From positions 1-64,000 of IMG/VR virus record IMGVR_UViG_3300029787_000021: a stretch of 64,000 nucleotides of DNA, one strand, 5' to 3'. Below, in pieces: positions 25,270-60,426 of this stretch (position 1 is the first letter of the stretch; each line of letters starts with the position of its first letter). The position numbers were made by a program, and so were the translations under genes. This DNA comes from a virus. The notes below the pieces were generated by a model that saw only the letters and a program-made list of their open reading frames with translations, did no database searches and had not been told where the DNA came from.

Positions 25270-26388
25270 TTATACTCCTGAGCCGGTTATATAAGCTCCT
25301 TTTTCATTAGTACCAAATACTTCGCCGGTTTCTAAGATAAATATCTTTTGACTAGGTATACGTACATATCTCCTTGTGCTTTCATCGTAATCATAAATAT
25401 GGCTACCAGATGTTGGGTATGTGCTATATTCCGTAAAAAACTTCTGCCCTACTGAGGAAGAGGTGTTATTAATAATATGAAATATAGGAGAATTAGTTGA
25501 ACTGCTATAAAATATTCTTTCTGTACCAGTATCTTTAAAATTAAAATAAAAAGTTTCTATGCTTCTTTCATTAGGATCAATTCCTACTATTGTAGTATTA
25601 TCCGCAAATAATTCGTGTCTAGAACCTTGAAATGATATAAAAGACAGCGCCGGTGTATCTTCGAAAAAGTCAGATACTTGTGCTGTATCTCCTACAGGGT
25701 TGTAGTTTGAACCAATAGCAAATAGTTTTGAACCATTATACCTACCGTTTATCCACCCGGTAGAATAGTAATTACTTTCCTGGACTGAAGCTTCTAAACT
25801 TCTTGAAGTAGCATTTTCTAAACTTGCAGTTATTTGTTCTAGGTTATTAGGTTGTAATTGACTCCTATCTCTATCTACTACAAACCTAAAATATGATTTT
25901 TTTACTTCTATTGCATTATTTTCATTTGCTTCGTATTGACTTAAATCAATTCTTCCTTCTACAAACGGTTCTAAGAATACAGTTTTATCTACAACATTAT
26001 TACTTCCTGTGATAAGATTATTAAAGAAAGGATCTCCTTCAGTATATGTTGAAGCACTAAGTAAAAGGCCGTCATGATCTTGAGCTTCTAATCTACCAAA
26101 TTGTATAAAGTAGTATCCGGTTTTTCGAGTAAGGTTAAGGTCTTTAAAATCTAATCTTGACGGACCTTGAGTTAATTGGCCAGACGACGATTGAAATATA
26201 GTTAATTCATTTAACTGATTTAAAGCACCTTCAACGTCAATTGCATTATCACTTTCAAAAGGAATCGATACTGCCCTAATTACATAATCAACTAAAGCTG
26301 CTCCAACTATATTAGATGAAGACATAAGTATGTTAATTGACCCGTCAGCTGGTTTTTGATTCGAAAAGTCTAGTAGATTAATTGGCAT
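25270..26388 (-). CDS. Putative virion protein
   Basis: 372 aa, Ser/Thr-rich, within the tail module. Confidence 0.55.
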   Translation of the reverse strand: MPINLLDFSNQKPADGSINILMSSSNIVGAALVDYVIRAVSIPFESDNAIDVEGALNQLNELTIFQSSSGQLTQGPSRLDFKDLNLTRKTGYYFIQFGRLEAQDHDGLLLSASTYTEGDPFFNNLITGSNNVVDKTVFLEPFVEGRIDLSQYEANENNAIEVKKSYFRFVVDRDRSQLQPNNLEQITASLENATSRSLEASVQESNYYSTGWINGRYNGSKLFAIGSNYNPVGDTAQVSDFFEDTPALSFISFQGSRHELFADNTTIVGIDPNERSIETFYFNFKDTGTERIFYSSSTNSPIFHIINNTSSSVGQKFFTEYSTYPTSGSHIYDYDESTRRYVRIPSQKIFILETGEVFGTNEKGAYITGSGV

Positions 26389-27983
26389 TACTTAATATTG
26401 TGTGTTAGGATTCCGTTTGCATAATAAACGTCATCTGTTTCTACATTTAATTTATATACAGCTCCATTATACGATTCTTCTATTATGGATGTTATTTCAA
26501 TTTCTTCTCCTGCAGCATTCATAAACTTATCTCCAAGCTGTAGTTCAGTAGCATATTTAATTATCCACTCACTACCTCTTTTTACTATATGTAAATGAGC
26601 TTTAGTAGTTTTTAATAAACCGTTATTAAAGTTCCATACATACTCTGGGTTTGATGATGTATTGTTTATTACTTCAGCCTCTGTAGCTGTTCCGTCTATA
26701 CTTTCGTTAGACCATGCTCTTAAAGTATCAGCATTATCTGAATCTACTAATGTAGGAATATTTTTAGATAAAATTTTATCTCCTACTGATAGGTTTTCTA
26801 CTGCTGTTGTTGTTCCATCTGCTTTTGTAATCATAGTTCCTGCTACAACGCATAAATCTTGACAATCAGCTGCTGATGATACGTATCCGTAAGTACTTAT
26901 CGTAAGTGCATCCCCAATACCAGTTCCGAATCGTAATGCATAATAACCTGATGATAAATATCCGGTACCGGTTGCAGAAGTATATATTCTATCTCCTTGT
27001 ACAGGATTAGTTCCAGAACCATCATGATAATATGTAGAATAAGATCCTCCATTACAAGCAGCTAATAAAGTTCCTCCAGAAAACATTTGTACAGCAGTTC
27101 TTACGATCGGTGATCTAGTAGGTGTTACAGTAGGTGATGGTGTTGCACTAGGTGATGGAGTACTACTAACTGATACACTAGGAGTTACTGATGGAGTAAC
27201 GGATGGTGTTACTGACTTACTAGGAGTTTTACTCGGTGTTACAGAAGGTGTGCTCTGTGGTGTTACAGATACCGAAGGCGTTTTACTCGGTGTTACTGAC
27301 GGAGTAATAGAAGGTGTTGATGATACACCTGGTGTAGAACTTACCGTAATAGATGGTGTAATTGATGGAGTAACAGATACACTTGGTGTTTTACTTGGAG
27401 TAACGCTAGGGGTTACTGATGGTGTAACTGATGGAGTAACAGAAGCACTAGGTGTTTTAGATGGTGTAGCTGATGGTGTTTTTGTTGGTGTTATTGACAC
27501 ACTAGGTGTTTTACTTGGAGTAATAGATACCGAAGGGGTAACTGATACTGATGGGGTAGCTGAAGGTGTAACTGATACAGAAGGAGTTGGTGGTATAAAA
27601 TTAAAGTTATTTGTACACTCGTTTACACTTCTAAATATAAAAGTATTTACTCCTTGCCCTGAGGTTAGCGTAACTCCTCCGTTTAAATCATCTTTACCTA
27701 ATACATTTTTATAAGTAGTACTGTTTAAAGTAACACTTCCTGTTAAAAGAGAAGTACCAGTATACTCATCTACTATATCTGCATATTCACCATTAGCTGA
27801 TGCTGTATAGTCCCAGCCTCCTCCAGTTTCTGCAGCTGCATTAGGTCCTAAAATTTTATTTGCTTGAATTTCGGAGTTACAATATACAAAGAAAGGACCT
27901 GCATCCTGAATAGCACCTTGAGTACTACCGGTTGGGGTATCTTTAAATCCTATTACCTTATATTGAAATCCTAAAAAGCCCAT
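26388..27983 (-). CDS. Fibre-like virion protein with an S-V-T-P repeat stalk and a C-terminal Hint (intein-like) domain
   Basis: (S-x-T-P)n tract; Hint runs from CVVAGTMI through TKAH to NGILTHN, followed by IK and stop. Confidence 0.8.
   Translation of the reverse strand: MGFLGFQYKVIGFKDTPTGSTQGAIQDAGPFFVYCNSEIQANKILGPNAAAETGGGWDYTASANGEYADIVDEYTGTSLLTGSVTLNSTTYKNVLGKDDLNGGVTLTSGQGVNTFIFRSVNECTNNFNFIPPTPSVSVTPSATPSVSVTPSVSITPSKTPSVSITPTKTPSATPSKTPSASVTPSVTPSVTPSVTPSKTPSVSVTPSITPSITVSSTPGVSSTPSITPSVTPSKTPSVSVTPQSTPSVTPSKTPSKSVTPSVTPSVTPSVSVSSTPSPSATPSPTVTPTRSPIVRTAVQMFSGGTLLAACNGGSYSTYYHDGSGTNPVQGDRIYTSATGTGYLSSGYYALRFGTGIGDALTISTYGYVSSAADCQDLCVVAGTMITKADGTTTAVENLSVGDKILSKNIPTLVDSDNADTLRAWSNESIDGTATEAEVINNTSSNPEYVWNFNNGLLKTTKAHLHIVKRGSEWIIKYATELQLGDKFMNAAGEEIEITSIIEESYNGAVYKLNVETDDVYYANGILTHNIK
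27110..27592 (-). repeat. Degenerate 12-bp coding repeats encoding (S-V/K/A/I-T-P)n
   Basis: Recurring ggtgttactgat/ggagtaacaga units with synonymous variation. Confidence 0.9.
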
Positions 27984-54052: not shown

Positions 54053-54211
54053 TTATCTAGGGTTTGGTACTAATCTAAAAGTACAGGCTGGTCTACCATT
54101 TATTATAGGCATACCAAATTCATCATACTCTATTGTCTTTACTTTAGTTCTTTTATTTTTAAAACGACCTACCATTATAGTATCGCCTACTTTAACATTT
54201 ATTTTAATCAT
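54053..54211 (-). CDS. 52-aa basic SH3-like hypothetical protein
   Basis: Hand translation MIKINVKVGDTIMVGRFKNKRTKVKTIEYDEFGMPIINGRPACTFRLVPNPR. Confidence 0.55.
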   Translation of the reverse strand: MIKINVKVGDTIMVGRFKNKRTKVKTIEYDEFGMPIINGRPACTFRLVPNPR

Positions 54212-54999
54212 AATAATTTTGTATAAGTACTTAAATCTTTATTTTCTTTATCTTTAATTAGGCATTTTTTACCCCAGAGTTCTTTATTATCTAAATCAAT
54301 AAAGAATTTATATGTAAAATCTGATTTAAATATATTAGCAGGCATAGTCATGCACCAAGAGTCTTCTCCTTTAGGTATTTGTATAAATAACGACATAAAC
54401 TTTTTCTTAGCCAAATGAGCTGCTAATAAACTATGAGCTGAACCTTGAAATAAATCAAAAGGTCTATCGATTAAAGGTGCTCCCATTTGACCATACTTCA
54501 TAAAAGACCAATACTGTTCAGGATAAAATTGATCTGACCATGCTATATTATCATACATATTATCATCTTTCCATTGATAATCCTTTGGGTATAAATCTCT
54601 TACTAACTCAGGATATTTTTTATCATATTGTACTTTCTTATCATATAATTCTGAAGCAGTTAAATTATCTATATCTAATTCTTCACAGAATTGCTTTAGT
54701 ATTTTATAATTCATATGACCATATGGAGTAGATCTAACTTCATCTATAAAAAAACTTATAGGAAAATTAATATAAACTAAGTTACTATTTAAAGGGGTCA
54801 TCCTAACCTGAGATTGCATTTGATATCTTATTTTAGGTTCTTTACCATTTTGAAGAATAAAAGTTTCTCTAAAGTTATTTGGATTTACCTCAGTAGTAAC
54901 TTTATCAAATCCTTTTTTGATCATCTTAACGACTTCATTCTCAACTAAAACATATTCATATGCTCTAACAATATCAAAACTAATTAAAGTATCTATCAT
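54208..54999 (-). CDS. Hypothetical protein
   Basis: 263-aa ORF; no motif recognised. Confidence 0.55.
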   Translation of the reverse strand: MIDTLISFDIVRAYEYVLVENEVVKMIKKGFDKVTTEVNPNNFRETFILQNGKEPKIRYQMQSQVRMTPLNSNLVYINFPISFFIDEVRSTPYGHMNYKILKQFCEELDIDNLTASELYDKKVQYDKKYPELVRDLYPKDYQWKDDNMYDNIAWSDQFYPEQYWSFMKYGQMGAPLIDRPFDLFQGSAHSLLAAHLAKKKFMSLFIQIPKGEDSWCMTMPANIFKSDFTYKFFIDLDNKELWGKKCLIKDKENKDLSTYTKLL

Positions 55000-56073: not shown

Positions 56074-56105
56074 TAATATAAGAAAAAATAGGCAGAAATC
56101 CAACT
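56074..56105 (-). promoter_or_regulatory. Host-type promoter
   Basis: AGTTG-N16-TTCTTATATTA. Confidence 0.7.
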
Positions 56106-57094
56106 TAAATCAGCTTTATCTGTGAGCTAGCTCGATAGTTACCTAATAATTCTTGATCTGTTTTTATATCTTTTAATGCTATTCCAGAATTACTATTTAT
56201 ATTTCCTTCTGAAAATGCTGTGTTTATTAATGCTAAAGGTTCTGAAAATAAAAAATTAGTATCTTTTATTAATCTAAGTTCAATTAAAGTTTTAAAGTTA
56301 GGATGTAAATCATTAGTATACGAACGTAATATATAAGCAGCTACGGATATTGGTAATGATTCTAATTCATCTCTAGTAATTTTATACCAACCTGTTTCTC
56401 CTTTCCATAATGGAAATACTTGTTCACCTGCTTTTATATCAACTAATGCAAAAAGACCTACTCCATGAATAGGACTTTGTCTTTGATATGACTTTACAGA
56501 TGAATCTAGATACTCCATAACATCTAATCTATCTTTTTTATTAAATTCTCCATTTGAAAAGTAAGTCCATCCTATTTTGTGACTTGTAGGATACCCTTCT
56601 ATTCCCCAATCAGTAGGAACTACTTTAAAATTTATATCTTTTCTAATTTTACTATATTCATATATTGAAAGAATACACCCTTCATTGGCTATAATTTTAC
56701 AATGATCCTCAAAAGATTTATATTTATTCCATTCTTGTTCTGTTGGTTCTTCATAGAAGAAGTCTAACATTTTCTTTAACTGTTTTTTAGTTTTATGTCT
56801 ACTAAAGTTTTCATCTTCAGGACAAAAAGTATCCATAAAGATACCATCATATTTCATATGTAAATTAGGTAATACGTCTATCCAATCACCATGAAATACA
56901 TTAACGTTAGGTTTATCCCAACTCCATAATAATGCTCTTTCGTATAAATCTTCTCTGATTTCAATTATTGTAAGAGATTTTACTCCTTTATTATAGAAAT
57001 ATTCTGATGTAACACCCCATCCATAACCAACATCTAATATATGCTTATCAGGAGATGTCATCAAATCTAAAACCTCTTTTTCAAATATAACCAT
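56105..57094 (-). CDS. Class I SAM methyltransferase (GAMT/Rmt2-like) fused to a SET-like domain
   Basis: ILDVGYGWG, TIIE, GDW and YDGIFMDT motifs, then SPIHGVGLFALVDIKAGE...IALKDIKTDQELLGNY. Confidence 0.78.
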   Translation of the reverse strand: MVIFEKEVLDLMTSPDKHILDVGYGWGVTSEYFYNKGVKSLTIIEIREDLYERALLWSWDKPNVNVFHGDWIDVLPNLHMKYDGIFMDTFCPEDENFSRHKTKKQLKKMLDFFYEEPTEQEWNKYKSFEDHCKIIANEGCILSIYEYSKIRKDINFKVVPTDWGIEGYPTSHKIGWTYFSNGEFNKKDRLDVMEYLDSSVKSYQRQSPIHGVGLFALVDIKAGEQVFPLWKGETGWYKITRDELESLPISVAAYILRSYTNDLHPNFKTLIELRLIKDTNFLFSEPLALINTAFSEGNINSNSGIALKDIKTDQELLGNYRASSQIKLI

Positions 57095-57104
57095 TTATTT
57101 TATC

Positions 57105-57446
57105 TTACCATTTTCTGCAACTCCAGTATCTTGCTTTCCATTTTGGTCCCGGAGTAGAACATTTATGTCTTGCTCTAAAAGATTTACGTCTAGCAGGATT
57201 ACTTTTTCTAATCCTCATAGTTTTTCTTTTAGCAGATGTTCCTCCATGACCGAAGTTAACTTTAACTACGTTACCTTTTTGATTTTTAACGTATACTTTA
57301 AACTTTTTAACATCACCTCTAGTAGGTTTATTAAGTTTTACTTTTCTTCCTCTGTATTCAGCCTCTTCAATAGGACCTAAGGATATAGTATACCCCTCAG
57401 CTAATTCTTCAGAGTATACATCCCATTCGTTAAATTGTTCTTTCAT
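57105..57446 (-). CDS. Conserved basic phage protein (DUF6321-like)
   Basis: KKFKVYV...VKVNFG...RRKSFRARHKC...ARYWSC..W. Confidence 0.7.
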   Translation of the reverse strand: MKEQFNEWDVYSEELAEGYTISLGPIEEAEYRGRKVKLNKPTRGDVKKFKVYVKNQKGNVVKVNFGHGGTSAKRKTMRIRKSNPARRKSFRARHKCSTPGPKWKARYWSCRKW

Positions 57447-57931
57447 TAGTCGTTTGCTCTATTAAACCTACCAACACAAATTCCTTGAGCGAAATAGTTA
57501 TTACTATCATTTACTCCCCAATCACCTCCATAAGAAATATGAAGTAACTCATGATCATCTACAACTCCAATAGCAGATACTTCAACATAAGCTCCTGTAT
57601 TGTCAAGACATTTATCTCCTACTTGTATTTGTACATCAGTTGCAGCAGTGATTGCAGGATCATGACAAACCCATGTTCCGCCTTCTTTATAAAAAATTTG
57701 ATTAGTTGAACATTTAACTCTTCTTCCATCAGCAAAGTCAATGTTAACTGTTGGCATAGTTTCTAATACAAATCCAGTAATCTCTTTTTCAAAGATTTCA
57801 TTACCATGCTCGAAAGAATGATATGCTATCCAATCCCCAGAAACAAGATCCTGAGCTTTAGATTGACCATTGTGGCCTACTGGTACGCCTCGGTTAACTT
57901 GGTAGATTAGTGTGTTTTGTGCTACTGCCAT
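57446..57931 (-). CDS. Stand-alone degenerate Hint-fold protein
   Basis: KAQDLVSGD, CSTNQIFY, IQVGD and NYFAQGICV segments; lacks Cys1, the TxxH His and the terminal HN. Confidence 0.6.
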   Translation of the reverse strand: MAVAQNTLIYQVNRGVPVGHNGQSKAQDLVSGDWIAYHSFEHGNEIFEKEITGFVLETMPTVNIDFADGRRVKCSTNQIFYKEGGTWVCHDPAITAATDVQIQVGDKCLDNTGAYVEVSAIGVVDDHELLHISYGGDWGVNDSNNYFAQGICVGRFNRAND

Positions 57932-58108: not shown

Positions 58109-58122
58109 ATAATATAAATAGG

Positions 58123-60387
58123 TTATTTATTGTGAACTATAATACCATTGGCAACATAATTGTGATATTCTTTTACTGTAAAATTGAATACTCTTTGATC
58201 TGGTTTAGAATCTATAACATCTATTGAAGAAATAGCTTTCCATTCTCCGCAACAATTTATCTCATCTCCAGGTTCTAATATACTAAACTCTTCTACATCT
58301 GGTTTTAAAGCTTTCCAACCCTGTTTAGTAAGGAAAGGATGCTCTGGTGTAAATTCAATATTACATATTCCTTCTCCATTAATAGTATATAAATCTCTAT
58401 CTCCTACTACTGTTGGTTCGATATCTATTACTTTACTTACTACCAACTCTTCTCCGTTCCAAGATAATACTTCATCACCAATTACTATATCTTCTATATT
58501 TTTTATATCTTCATTAGCTAAACTAATTTCAGTACCTTCTACGAAACAACAACCAAAACCTCCTGGAGGAACTCTGTTATGAACTAAAAATCCATTAGCA
58601 TAAAAATTATTATTATCAGCAACTTCATCTAAATTATATACTGTTTCATTATGAGGATTTTCTTCAATAAATGTAAGTTCATAAAAATTACCATCGTGAT
58701 TTAAACATTTATCTCCTACAACTAAAGCTCGATCTGCAATATTACTTTCAGCTGGTTTATATGCTGACCATCCGCTTCCACTTACATAAAATGGATGATC
58801 GAAAGTACAAGTATTAAAATTATCGTTAGAAAATTCTAAATAAACTACAGGTTGATTATGTTTAGTTTGAATTTGAGTAACTTCTCTTTCCTCTTGTTGT
58901 TCTGAGTCTAAATTATAAGTTAATACTGTATCACTAATTGCAATATCTTCTATATTTTTAATTAAAGGAACTTCTCCATTACTTAAAGTAATCTTAGTCC
59001 CAGCTACAAAACAAGGAGCATTATGTACTAAAAAGTTAGATCCAGATAATTGATAATTATCATCATCTTCAACATTAATTTGTCTATAACCAGCAGCAGT
59101 TGTAGTTACTCCAGTATATCCTTCAGTTACAGCTTCAAACCCACTACCAGATACCCAAACTGAATGAGTATTAGGAAAGATATTTTGAGCATATTCCCAT
59201 TCTACTCTATCAATCACTGCATTATAAACTAAATATGCTTCATTAGGAGAAGTGTATCCAGTTGCATTTGCTGTTTTAATCTCACTAATAATATTATTAC
59301 TAGCTGATATTTCATAAGAAGATAAAACTAAAGATCCAGTAGCATGAGAACCATCAGGTAATTGATTTCCTGAGTGACTCCACTCGTACCAGTCTTGATT
59401 ATCTTCAGGTGATCCACTAACAAAGTATGATAATACTGCATTAGAAGCTGATACATCTTTAGCTAAAATAAAATCACCAGACATGCTAATTAAACTTTCA
59501 CCATAAGGCCATACTCCATAAGTTCTTTCAGTCATATGATTGGTAGCAAAACAAAACTTATAGTATGTTTCCAATTCACTACTAATATTTGCAGTATTAA
59601 AATCGTTTAAACTTTCTGGTTCATCAAAATAAGCTCCTACTTTATAGTTACCTATAGATACTTGATCTAAATTAGCACCGTAAACAAAAGTAAAATTTCT
59701 AATAGAAGTTACTTTATCTCCTTGCTTCTCACTAGAATTATAATGATAGTTCTGAATCATTGAATCCTCATTTTTAACTTCATTTATAAAATTATTCCAT
59801 CTATCAGAAGAACCTGAAGTTGCATGACCAATTTTATACATTTTCATAGTCTGATGAGCTTCAGTTGCTTTTTTAGTAACTGCATCAATAATATTATCTG
59901 GGTTTAGATTAGATTTATCTATATGGTCTATAACTCCAGTTGCTGAGGATGAATAGTAGAATTCAGTAACTTGATCTTCAGCAGAGTTATCACTAAATAA
60001 CTTAAGTAGGTTAAGTTTACCTTTTGCATAAGTAGAATCTAATACTGCATTTTCATCATAAGCTAATCTAATAATAAATTTATTATCAGCATCTGAAGGT
60101 GAAGTAGGATAAATACTATCTATTTTTTCTGCTACTGCTGTGAAAGAATGACTATGAGCTGATGCTACAGATGACGATAAATACTCAACGAATTTGTCAT
60201 GATAAGCATCTTTATATATTACATATACTGAATCTATACTCCCAGTCATCATTGATACTATAGGAGTTACATCAACTTCGTTTCCTAAACTAGAGTTAAT
60301 AAATGAAGTATCGGTATTTATTTCTAATAACCTTATGTTATTTGATTCATCAACACAGAAGTCTGATGAGAAAATAGTTCCTTTCAT
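58123..60387 (-). CDS. Circularly permuted ATP-grasp-like domain fused to three tandem Hint domains
   Basis: N-terminal DF......LLEINT, later VTK, IQNY and IRNF; Hint1 (about 59517-59020, ends LVHN), Hint2 (59013-58576, CFVAGT..TFDHPF..LVHN), Hint3 (58548-58129, CFVEGT..TPEHPF..IVHN). Confidence 0.8.
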   Translation of the reverse strand: MKGTIFSSDFCVDESNNIRLLEINTDTSFINSSLGNEVDVTPIVSMMTGSIDSVYVIYKDAYHDKFVEYLSSSVASAHSHSFTAVAEKIDSIYPTSPSDADNKFIIRLAYDENAVLDSTYAKGKLNLLKLFSDNSAEDQVTEFYYSSSATGVIDHIDKSNLNPDNIIDAVTKKATEAHQTMKMYKIGHATSGSSDRWNNFINEVKNEDSMIQNYHYNSSEKQGDKVTSIRNFTFVYGANLDQVSIGNYKVGAYFDEPESLNDFNTANISSELETYYKFCFATNHMTERTYGVWPYGESLISMSGDFILAKDVSASNAVLSYFVSGSPEDNQDWYEWSHSGNQLPDGSHATGSLVLSSYEISASNNIISEIKTANATGYTSPNEAYLVYNAVIDRVEWEYAQNIFPNTHSVWVSGSGFEAVTEGYTGVTTTAAGYRQINVEDDDNYQLSGSNFLVHNAPCFVAGTKITLSNGEVPLIKNIEDIAISDTVLTYNLDSEQQEEREVTQIQTKHNQPVVYLEFSNDNFNTCTFDHPFYVSGSGWSAYKPAESNIADRALVVGDKCLNHDGNFYELTFIEENPHNETVYNLDEVADNNNFYANGFLVHNRVPPGGFGCCFVEGTEISLANEDIKNIEDIVIGDEVLSWNGEELVVSKVIDIEPTVVGDRDLYTINGEGICNIEFTPEHPFLTKQGWKALKPDVEEFSILEPGDEINCCGEWKAISSIDVIDSKPDQRVFNFTVKEYHNYVANGIIVHNK

Positions 60388-60426
60388 TCTTGAATTTTTA
60401 TATAAATAGTAACTAGTACTATATTA

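Follow-up and report, generated by a model that had tools for sequence, protein, structure and literature searches.

A phage protein that joins an ATP-grasp-like domain to three Hint domains: a candidate self-processing amidoligase with a small partner

Why should a phage protein that resembles an amide-bond-forming enzyme carry three Hint domains which bracket almost nothing? This question is raised by an open reading frame (ORF) of 754 amino acids (aa), encoded on the minus strand at 58123..60387 of the viral DNA analysed here, namely the first 64,000 nucleotides of the IMG/VR record IMGVR_UViG_3300029787_000021 (hereafter the window). ATP-grasp ligases are makers of amide bonds, and Hint domains, including bacterial intein-like (BIL) domains, are self-splicing or self-cleaving elements found in replication proteins, toxins, Hedgehog proteins and the ubiquitin-like arrays of ciliates. 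With moderate confidence, we read the protein as a self-processing two-subunit amidoligase that forms one half of a conserved two-gene phage module, and a role in making or tagging peptides is possible. Both types of domain are known, whereas their fusion, a Hint that seems to act as a cutter, tandem BIL domains with minimal exteins, the small subunit and the surrounding neighbourhood of tagged enzymes are undescribed in the literature and databases that could be searched. A full-text search of the literature, with subscription journals and supplementary files outside its scope, returned no described system that joins a Hint or BIL domain to an ATP-grasp.

The source is an uncultured aquatic tailed phage, the record of which comprises 73,431 bases with an estimated completeness of 44%, and the window contains portal, large terminase and baseplate-wedge genes. 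The host is probably a member of the Flavobacteriia, because the portal protein resembles that of Flavobacterium phage vB_FspM_immuto (73.7% identity), and the G+C content of approximately 30% in the window is consistent with this. The parts of the ORF and its small neighbour are arranged as follows.

58123..60387, minus strand: 754-aa ORF, consisting of an ATP-grasp-like domain, Hint1, Hint2, Hint3 and a terminal Lys
59518..60387, minus strand: circularly permuted ATP-grasp-like domain, residues 1-290, predicted from the AF2 (AlphaFold2) fold, Foldseek and conservation
60313..60363, minus strand: DFCVDESNNIRLLEINT, residues 9-25, the putative Mg-binding D...E-x-N strands at the extreme N-terminus
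59020..59517, minus strand: Hint1, residues 291-456, recognised by Foldseek and jackhmmer
59014..59019, minus strand: linker 1, Ala457-Pro458
58576..59013, minus strand: Hint2, residues 459-604, complete, with Cys459, T528-x-x-H531 and H603-N604
58549..58575, minus strand: linker 2, RVPPGGFGC, residues 605-613
58129..58548, minus strand: Hint3, residues 614-753, complete, with Cys614, T680-x-x-H683 and H752-N753
58123..58128, minus strand: Lys754 and the stop codon
57965..58108, minus strand: 47-aa partner ORF, MRKPIFYQK...FITYFKAKHS, with its ATG 14 nt after the stop of the large ORF

The ORF had been singled out in a preliminary description made from the letters of the DNA, and every motif quoted there, as well as the three junctions, was located as described when placed on the translation. 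VTK (residues 170-172), IQNY (211-214) and IRNF (229-232) lie in the N-terminal domain, the Hints end in LVHN (453-456), LVHN (601-604) and IVHN (750-753), and Hint2 and Hint3 begin with CF (459-460 and 614-615) and carry the block-B motifs TFDHPF (528-533) and TPEHPF (680-685). The junctions read HN/AP/CF, HN/RVPPGGFGC/CF and HN/K-stop, which puts A, R and K at +1. The same placement confirmed that there are three Hints, that the first lacks Cys1 and that Cys, Ser or Thr occupies none of the +1 positions.

The first step toward an answer is the identity of the N-terminal domain, for which the predicted fold is the most informative evidence. Residues 1-290 were modelled by AF2 with a predicted local distance difference test (pLDDT) score of 90.6 and a predicted template modelling (pTM) score of 0.86 (54-row alignment), and residues 1-457 with 92.7 and 0.86, respectively (68-row alignment). 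When the shorter model was compared with the PDB in Foldseek, all 13 matches at E<=1e-3 were circularly permuted ATP-grasp ligases of the YjfC, glutathione-synthetase or glutathionylspermidine-synthase (GspS) type (E 3e-7 to 1.4e-4), and no classical ATP-grasp was significant in that search. The best match was Escherichia coli YjfC (7uk6, E 3e-7, TMq 0.46), and the others included the glutathione synthetases of potato, human and yeast (E 2e-5 to 7e-5), a putative glutathionylspermidine synthase (3n6x) and a glutathione-synthetase-like protein of a nematode. The permuted ATP-grasp proposed in the preliminary description is thereby borne out, and on this confident model residues 1-290 are predicted to form such a domain, an assignment carried by the fold search. 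A protein-atlas search returned ATP-grasp families at a score of 0.91, which we treat as leads only, and neither PHROGs nor NCBIfam held a usable family for the domain.

Conservation follows the same outline. All 113 family members have D9, E22, N24, T25, R107 and D117; R230 and Y236 are kept in 112 and K172 in 101 of them, and Y120 and G237 are nearly invariant. In YjfC, as translated from the E. coli K-12 record, an acidic residue is followed eleven residues on by ..KLLE-Y-N-A-D-T; in the phage family D9 is followed by ..RLLE-I-N-T-D-T at the extreme N-terminus. The succession of D9..E22-x-N24, K172, Q212 (in an IQ-x-Y hinge) and R230 is that of YjfC, with residue equivalence judged by eye, and since the metal-binding strands come before the Lys, the IQ-x-Y hinge and the Arg, the order is a permuted one. 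The RefSeq name of YjfC is 'peptide--spermidine ligase'. In a passage of one paper, YjfC and YgiC are named as peptidylpolyamine synthetases, and enzymes of this type are said to join the C-terminal carboxylate of a peptide to an amine (PMC12568646, citing Pederick 2023).

What does the second gene of the module contribute? The preliminary description missed this obligatory partner, along with a subfamily bearing Cys/Trp-rich tails and the tagged neighbourhood of tailoring enzymes, both of which are considered below. Relatives have a counterpart of 43-53 aa directly behind the large gene, recognisable by the pattern ..Y-K-K......N-R-T......K..v..iv..F-i..f-K-a-K-H-[SL]: it is present in 81/81 loci of the subfamily to which the window belongs, where 52 distinct sequences have a mean column identity of 42%. 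In a sister subfamily it was found in 69 of the 70 loci from which the gene was recovered, the exception being a locus that ends at the gene (the sister-subfamily pattern missed the gene in 10/80 loci). No family in PHROGs or NCBIfam corresponds to it. The predicted complex of residues 1-457 with the 47-aa protein scored ipSAE 0.88, 0.87 and 0.84, compared with 0.00 for the best of three controls, the partner was modelled with pLDDT 90-91, and at least 95% of the contacts were common to the runs. The mark used for ipSAE is reached by 58/80 solved complexes and 2/110 mismatched pairs. The model supports binding of the 47-aa protein to the ATP-grasp/Hint1 module, with the N-terminal strand of the partner predicted to lie against Hint1 residues 422-432 and its C-terminal helix against ATP-grasp residues 8-37, 115-140 and 222-254. 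Within this predicted interface, partner residues 7-12 face the Hint1 strand 423-427, and the partner helix 27-46 faces the ATP-grasp helix 124-134.

Two other explanations of the small ORF were considered. One made it a fragment that had broken away from the ATP-grasp and was equivalent to the first ~100 aa of YjfC; hhalign gave this no support (P 0.47). Its fusion to the Hint protein by read-through or frameshifting was rejected, as the gaps between stop and ATG range from -1 to 99 nt and the frame is inconsistent.

The three Hints differ in what they retain. Hint2 and Hint3 (36% identical to one another) are matched above the Pfam cut-offs, at ~458-604 and 612-753, by PT-HINT, Intein_splicing, Hom_end_hint and Vint, with 55.9 bits for PT-HINT against a cut-off of 27.7 and 61.9 bits for Intein_splicing against 35.8; on Hint2 the PT-HINT match has E 7.3e-15. 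The top Pfam match over Hint2 (residues 460-563; 58576..59013, minus strand), beating the Hint families, is to AXH, the Ataxin-1/HBP1 module (E 2.3e-20), and is probably a cross-match of the AXH model to Hint-like sequences. Hint1 is not detected by Pfam. In the model of residues 1-457 it matches BIL, intein and hedgehog structures in Foldseek (E 3.8e-8 to 1e-3, TMt 0.75-0.85), with BIL2 from the BUBL1 locus of Tetrahymena ranking first (6y75, TMt 0.79, E 3.8e-8); the C. thermocellum BIL domain 2lwy gives TMt 0.85, and many inteins also match. Additionally, jackhmmer started from Hint2 recovers Hint1, with a domain E of 1.4e-7 in the query protein and down to ~1e-22 in relatives. In 156/156 copies of Hint1 no residue, Cys or other, aligns at the Cys1 position, and a conserved block-B Thr/His is likewise lacking. 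Block F (E440, and D443 in 141/156) and the terminal H455-N456 are retained, and HN closes Hint1 in 113/113 proteins. Judged by these residues, Hint1 appears half-degenerate, having lost the N-terminal catalytic half while keeping the His-Asn needed for C-terminal cleavage.

The downstream Hints have a different signature. Among 223 of them, from 166 distinct family proteins, Cys1 is present in 220, the block-B Thr in 198, the block-B His in all 223, the terminal His in 196 and the terminal Asn in 197. The residue that follows a complete Hint is never Cys, Ser or Thr (0/184); it is Lys or Arg in 163/184 and Lys in 112/184. After the last complete Hint the tail contains Lys in 109/109 cases and is a lone Lys in 91 of these. 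In some members of the family the closing Hint has Cys1 and T-x-x-H and lacks HN (...SGLGDN..LN..RQ.. endings). The work of Aranko in 2013 behind structure 2lwy reportedly deals, to go by its title, with BIL-mediated ligation 'without nucleophilic side chains'. BIL domains are described, in a part of another paper, as lacking a +1 nucleophile and hence as giving mainly cleaved products (PMC7664689).

Two further ORFs in the window bear Hint-like sequence. Beside the tail-fibre and baseplate genes, a 531-aa ORF (26388..27983, minus strand) has a long region of (T/S)PSVSV-type repeats and, at its C-terminus, a complete Hint (C...THN) with IK-stop behind it, making it a second terminal Hint-plus-Lys module of this phage. 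A 161-aa stand-alone ORF (57446..57931, minus strand) matches residues 479-602 of the 754-aa protein (E 1.2e-10) and has neither Cys1 nor a terminal HN. It was rejected as a conserved part of the module, as it stands directly after the gene only in the window and in its two closest relatives, the loci L004 and L006; in locus L031 an ORF of cluster 1 lies a few genes further downstream of the module gene.

What is established here is how the domains are arranged, that the catalytic residues and junctions are conserved, that the two genes are linked and that their complex is predicted with a high score; from this we infer a sequence of chemical steps. The ATP-grasp would be rigidly joined to Hint1, which could not form an N-terminal thioester but would keep the His-Asn pair for C-terminal cleavage, and the 47-aa product of the next gene would bind across both as the second subunit. 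Whatever follows Hint1 would be a variable and removable appendage, represented in the window by two catalytically complete BIL-type Hints. In the first step, cyclisation of Asn456 would cut the chain after Hint1. In the second, if the chemistry of BIL domains applies, Cys459 and Cys614 would each form a thioester with the residue preceding it while Asn604 and Asn753 cyclise, with the result that Hint2 and Hint3 excise themselves, either setting AP, RVPPGGFGC and the final Lys free or joining them up again. In the third, suggested by the fold and by D9, E22, N24, K172 and R230, the matured complex would use ATP to link a carboxylate to an amine, the carboxylate probably being a peptide C-terminus, as in the closest structural relatives.

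A number of observations weigh against this reading. The Foldseek TM-scores of the 1-290 model against PDB structures are only 0.41-0.46, with root-mean-square deviations of 8.5-11 Å. In hhalign, comparison with YjfC and with 25 YjfC orthologues is weak (P 0.016 and 0.002; probability 3-14%), and confident pairing is confined to the first motif. Pfam finds nothing significant in residues 1-457 of the query and, across 54 members, gives only sub-threshold matches to ATPgrasp_ST (2/54) and RimK (1/54); PF03738 (GSP_synth) has 0 matches in the virus record, and a profile search against PDB sequences gave no significant match for the N-terminal domain. A glycine-rich ATP loop is not evident after K172. 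The score of the complex is the model's own confidence, obtained with our own alignments and only roughly calibrated. Predicted contacts at residues 8, 10 and 12 and at 229 and 231 alternate with the putative catalytic D9 and R230; the partner is therefore read as a structural subunit that sits behind the catalytic sheet and does not occupy the active site as a substrate would. Finally, the reading leaves without explanation why an enzyme should carry Hints with almost no cargo.

The distribution of the family bears on that last point. A word-indexed search gave 112 homologues of 472-968 aa, and when 1.84 billion representatives (clustered at 50% identity) were searched exhaustively with a profile, 456 clusters were matched at E<=1e-3, including 230 at E<=1e-30; among the 150 matches listed, nearly all align from residue 1 to ~465. 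IMG/VR holds 248 relatives of the window subfamily and 151 of the sister subfamily. The family was found in metagenomes only, on hundreds of phage contigs: the ATP-grasp/Hint1 module of either subfamily has no tblastn match at E<=0.01 in 50,697 GenBank phage records, 9 of which are matched by the full 754-aa protein through its Hints only, and Foldseek found no structural match to the module in BFVD at E<=1e-3. No credible Hint-less form of the ATP-grasp was found, with 13 of the 14 shorter matches lying on contigs of <=2.4 kb. The ATP-grasp and Hint1 are always N-terminal, and the part downstream is variable, consisting of a 4-9 aa tail, a 28-52 aa Cys-rich tail, or a linker of 0-14 residues that leads into Cys1 of the next Hint. 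Among 162 parsed proteins, the number of extra complete Hints is zero in 27, one in 62, two in 70 and three in 3.

This range in copy number is accompanied by conserved junctions, a combination for which the preliminary description had proposed to look, as the counts for Cys1 (220/223), the block-B His (223/223) and the HN of Hint1 (113/113) show. That description otherwise stood in part: the fold and the set of Hints were upheld, and two proposals were not supported, that an upstream motif is of the late-promoter type (see below) and that the linker peptides are products. Across the 162 members the linkers, 0-14 residues long, are not conserved as peptides (AP, W, Y, none, PFGAGR.., LGISGS), and a want of conserved linker features had been named beforehand as one of the things that would speak against AP and RVPPGGFGC as products; to that extent it does. 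What is conserved at the junctions is HN, Cys1, a basic +1 residue and the final Lys, and by this comparison the bracketed peptides look like spacers.

The variable copy number could also mean that the extra Hints are selfish or neutral insertions, similar to mini-inteins, that merely remove themselves, the functional unit being the ATP-grasp, Hint1, a short tail and the small protein. Copy numbers from 0 to 3 (27, 62, 70 and 3 of the 162 proteins), the existence of Hint-free members with tails of 4-9 aa and the intact catalytic residues, which self-removal needs, are as this explanation would have it, but we consider it very unlikely. Canonical splicing would need Cys, Ser or Thr at +1, which is never present (0/184); a homing endonuclease is absent, and there is hardly any C-extein that could be put back. 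In proteins with two extra Hints, moreover, the first is nearer to query Hint2 in 54/69 cases and the second nearer to Hint3 in 44/70, so that some moderate positional orthology across phages is suggested by the sequence comparison, and this favours long retention over repeated invasion.

Alternatively, the complete Hints could serve for covalent attachment, as in Hedgehog or BUBL proteins, each activating the C-terminus upstream of it as a thioester. The upstream polypeptide would then be passed on to a nucleophile, for instance the side chain of a Lys, the 47-aa partner, a protein of the virion or some molecule of the host, instead of merely being hydrolysed. This would accord with a BUBL1 BIL2 domain (6y75, E 3.8e-8) as the best Foldseek match of Hint1, with Lys at +1 in 112/184 cases and in 109/109 tails after the last complete Hint, and with the second phage protein of the window (26388..27983), which likewise ends in a complete Hint and IK-stop. 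The Hints that keep Cys1 and T-x-x-H without HN are what transfer at the N-terminal side only predicts. However, the data point to no acceptor, Hint2 of the query is followed by Arg, which is not a nucleophile, and the 27 members without a complete Hint, which retain both module and small ORF, would be unable to act in this manner. Attachment of this kind is judged unlikely.

Could the appendage instead be the product? The sister subfamily bears on this. In place of extra Hints its proteins carry a conserved Cys/Trp-rich tail of ~30 aa, HN/x-C-W-C-P-W-x-Y-C-G-x-Y-C-x4-C-x2-C...K.., and in one protein (P0107) this tail is bracketed by Hint1 and a complete Hint. In this subfamily the gene and its small ORF show conserved synteny with a Trp halogenase (PF04820, E 2.6e-86), several 2-oxoglutarate (2OG)-Fe(II) oxygenases, a radical S-adenosylmethionine (SAM) protein, a GDSL hydrolase and unnamed families. 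These features invite comparison with ribosomally synthesised and post-translationally modified peptides (RiPPs): the segment after Hint1 would be a ribosomal precursor made as the tail of the enzyme itself, the neighbours would modify it, cyclisation of the Hint1 Asn would release it, and the ATP-grasp or the Hint thioesters would ligate or cyclise it. For the window, AP, RVPPGGFGC and K would be the building blocks of the product. The replacement of the Hints by a tail with conserved Trp, the placement of the tail in P0107 and the synteny with halogenase, oxygenases, radical SAM protein and hydrolase are all in keeping with such a peptide factory, as is the action of the nearest structural relatives on peptide C-terminal carboxylates described in part of one source (PMC12568646), and so is the BIL-mediated ligation named in the title of the 2013 Aranko paper. 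Against it stand the short, unconserved linkers (0-14 aa) of the window subfamily and the fact that clusters of halogenases and 2OG oxygenases are common in cultured cyanophages and pelagiphages that lack the module. We regard it as possible but rather unlikely. Production of such a peptide and attachment through a Hint thioester both overlap with the idea put forward in the preliminary description. For the window both are weakened because its linkers are not conserved, and for the sister subfamily both are strengthened because of the Cys/Trp-rich tail and the halogenase neighbourhood.

The neighbouring enzymes share an ending. Across the related loci (L004-L164), 451 distinct proteins in 12 clusters of unrelated enzymes, among them the Trp halogenase, the 2OG-Fe(II) oxygenases, the radical SAM protein, the GDSL hydrolase and unnamed families, follow the C-terminal consensus K(-7)..K(-4)-[T/S]-[L/I]-[I/L]-COOH. 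The frequency with which the last two residues are hydrophobic, cluster by cluster, is 119/119, 59/59, 50/52, 48/48, 49/49, 35/38, 33/33 and 14/15, compared with 0/44 for the small ORF, 1/55 for the ATP-grasp/Hint protein and 0 in several other families of the same operons. In the window subfamily, 351/852 distinct ORFs end in two hydrophobic residues, and these are concentrated in the enzyme clusters. A cause at the nucleotide level, such as overlapping starts or AT-rich initiation regions, was rejected for the ...LI ends, as codons and stop codons vary; it is also countered by the other, tightly packed families of the same operons, which never end in this way. Since codons and stop codons vary, the ending is a signal at the level of the protein, and we take the motif K-x-x-K-[T/S]-[L/I]-[I/L]-COOH to resemble a class-I PDZ ligand. 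The Pelagibacter phage HTVC008M, used as a single control, encodes a homologous halogenase and 2OG oxygenases and has no match to the module, and the K-x-x-K-[ST]-[LI]-[IL] ending is found in 0/6 of the enzymes examined from it.

Combining the tail with the tags gives a further version of peptide maturation, a scaffolded one, in which a tail precursor sits on its own ATP-grasp/Hint enzyme and about ten families of tailoring enzymes are recruited through the C-terminal K-x-x-K-[ST]-[LI]-[IL]-COOH tag. The tag would be read by the ATP-grasp, as a binder of peptide carboxylates, by Hint1 or by the small subunit, and Hint chemistry through Asn cyclisation and thioesters, not a protease, would release the product and possibly ligate or cyclise it; the tandem BIL domains of the window would turn pieces of the tail into thioesters for nucleophile-free ligation or protein tagging. 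We put this forward tentatively, as a fairly doubtful proposal. The window itself does little for a peptide product of either kind: 11/77 of its ORFs end in two hydrophobic residues, which by eye, with no control run, is about the level of chance, and near the gene just two fit the tag, at 56105..57094 (...QIKLI) and 54208..54999 (...YTKLL).

Two families in these neighbourhoods may be noted in their own right. The ORF at 56105..57094 (minus strand) encodes a 329-aa fusion of an N-terminal SAM-methyltransferase-like part (RrnaAD, E 1.2e-5) and a C-terminal SET-like part (E 0.007), and in the close relative L004 the two halves are separate genes. In most of the loci L085-L164, a ~120-aa Cys-rich protein resembling a zinc ribbon and ending in ...KKSII is encoded immediately upstream of the ATP-grasp/Hint gene; this cluster (cluster 4) has 62 members in 62 loci, one copy in each.

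Returning to the self-processing amidoligase, its relation to known systems can be set out domain by domain. With YjfC/YgiC, the GspS-type enzymes and eukaryotic glutathione synthetase the N-terminal domain shares the predicted permuted fold and the placing of D...(K/R)LLE-x-N-x-DT before the Lys, the hinge Gln and the Arg. It differs from YjfC in lacking the ~100 residues that precede this motif, so that the phage domain starts at it, and from that class as a whole in lying outside the detectable sequence families, in being fused to a Hint and in the predicted need for a separate 47-aa subunit. Graspetides, RiPPs of the microviridin type, also have an ATP-grasp that is genetically tied to a short peptide or protein, as here; they rely on a classical, non-permuted ATP-grasp, on separate leader peptides and on proteases, whereas the candidate peptide of the phage is joined to the enzyme through a Hint.

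On the Hint side, Hint2 and Hint3 share with the C. thermocellum BIL domain (2lwy) Cys1, T-x-x-H, the terminal HN and the lack of Cys, Ser or Thr at +1. The phage differs in arranging its Hints in tandem at the C-terminus, with spacers of 2 and 9 aa, a single Lys as 'C-extein' and a degenerate Hint in front. Tandem BIL-type Hints in one polypeptide also occur in the ciliate BUBL loci (6y75, 6tmm), where BIL domains alternate with ubiquitin-like domains; between the phage Hints there is no folded ubiquitin-like domain, only the spacers of 2 and 9 residues (0-14 in the family). The PT-HINT domains of polymorphic toxins, the Pfam family of which matches Hint2, detach what lies C-terminal to them, but no toxin domain follows the phage Hints (HN-K-stop), and the context is that of an enzyme and not of a secreted filament. 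The pattern of canonical class 1 inteins, with Cys, Ser or Thr at +1 and a position within a host protein whose halves are joined again, is not seen in the phage protein, given A, R and K at +1 and a last 'C-extein' of one Lys.

If the processing is real, the protein would show that in nature a Hint can be pared down to C-terminal cutting alone and fused to an enzyme, and it would supply a natural tandem BIL array with minimal exteins that would be of interest for protein-ligation tools. It would also suggest possible substrates for the many orphan halogenases and 2OG oxygenases that marine phages carry. The abundance of the family in aquatic viromes implies that its function, whatever the chemistry, is ecologically widespread.

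A last point concerns how the module may be expressed. An octamer precedes each of its two genes in the window.

60401..60408, minus strand: TATTTATA in gene orientation, 13 nt upstream of the ATG of the 754-aa ORF
58113..58120, minus strand: a second copy of TATTTATA, 4 nt upstream of the small ORF

The first copy reads TATAAATA on the plus strand and TATTTATA on the gene strand (60401-60408). The preliminary description took this for a late-type motif; its orientation is opposite to the T4 late consensus. A T4-type late promoter was rejected, as the octamer is reversed and not enriched overall: the window holds 29 copies against 24.8 +/- 5.0 expected, and 21/100 shuffles reach 29. In the orientation of the minus-strand genes, 13/20 copies sit 4-40 nt upstream of a start codon, which marks the octamer as a recurrent upstream element. 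Sites of TATTTATA include 3728, 5644, 25238, 27994, 38918, 58113, 60401 and 62041, and the motif is often embedded as C/A-TATTTATA-T/A-A. In this virus, which resembles Flavobacterium phages, it may serve as a promoter or initiation element. The genes that it precedes include those for the portal, the 531-aa Hint-bearing ORF (27994), the 754-aa ORF and the small ORF, and co-regulation of the module gene with virion genes is plausible.

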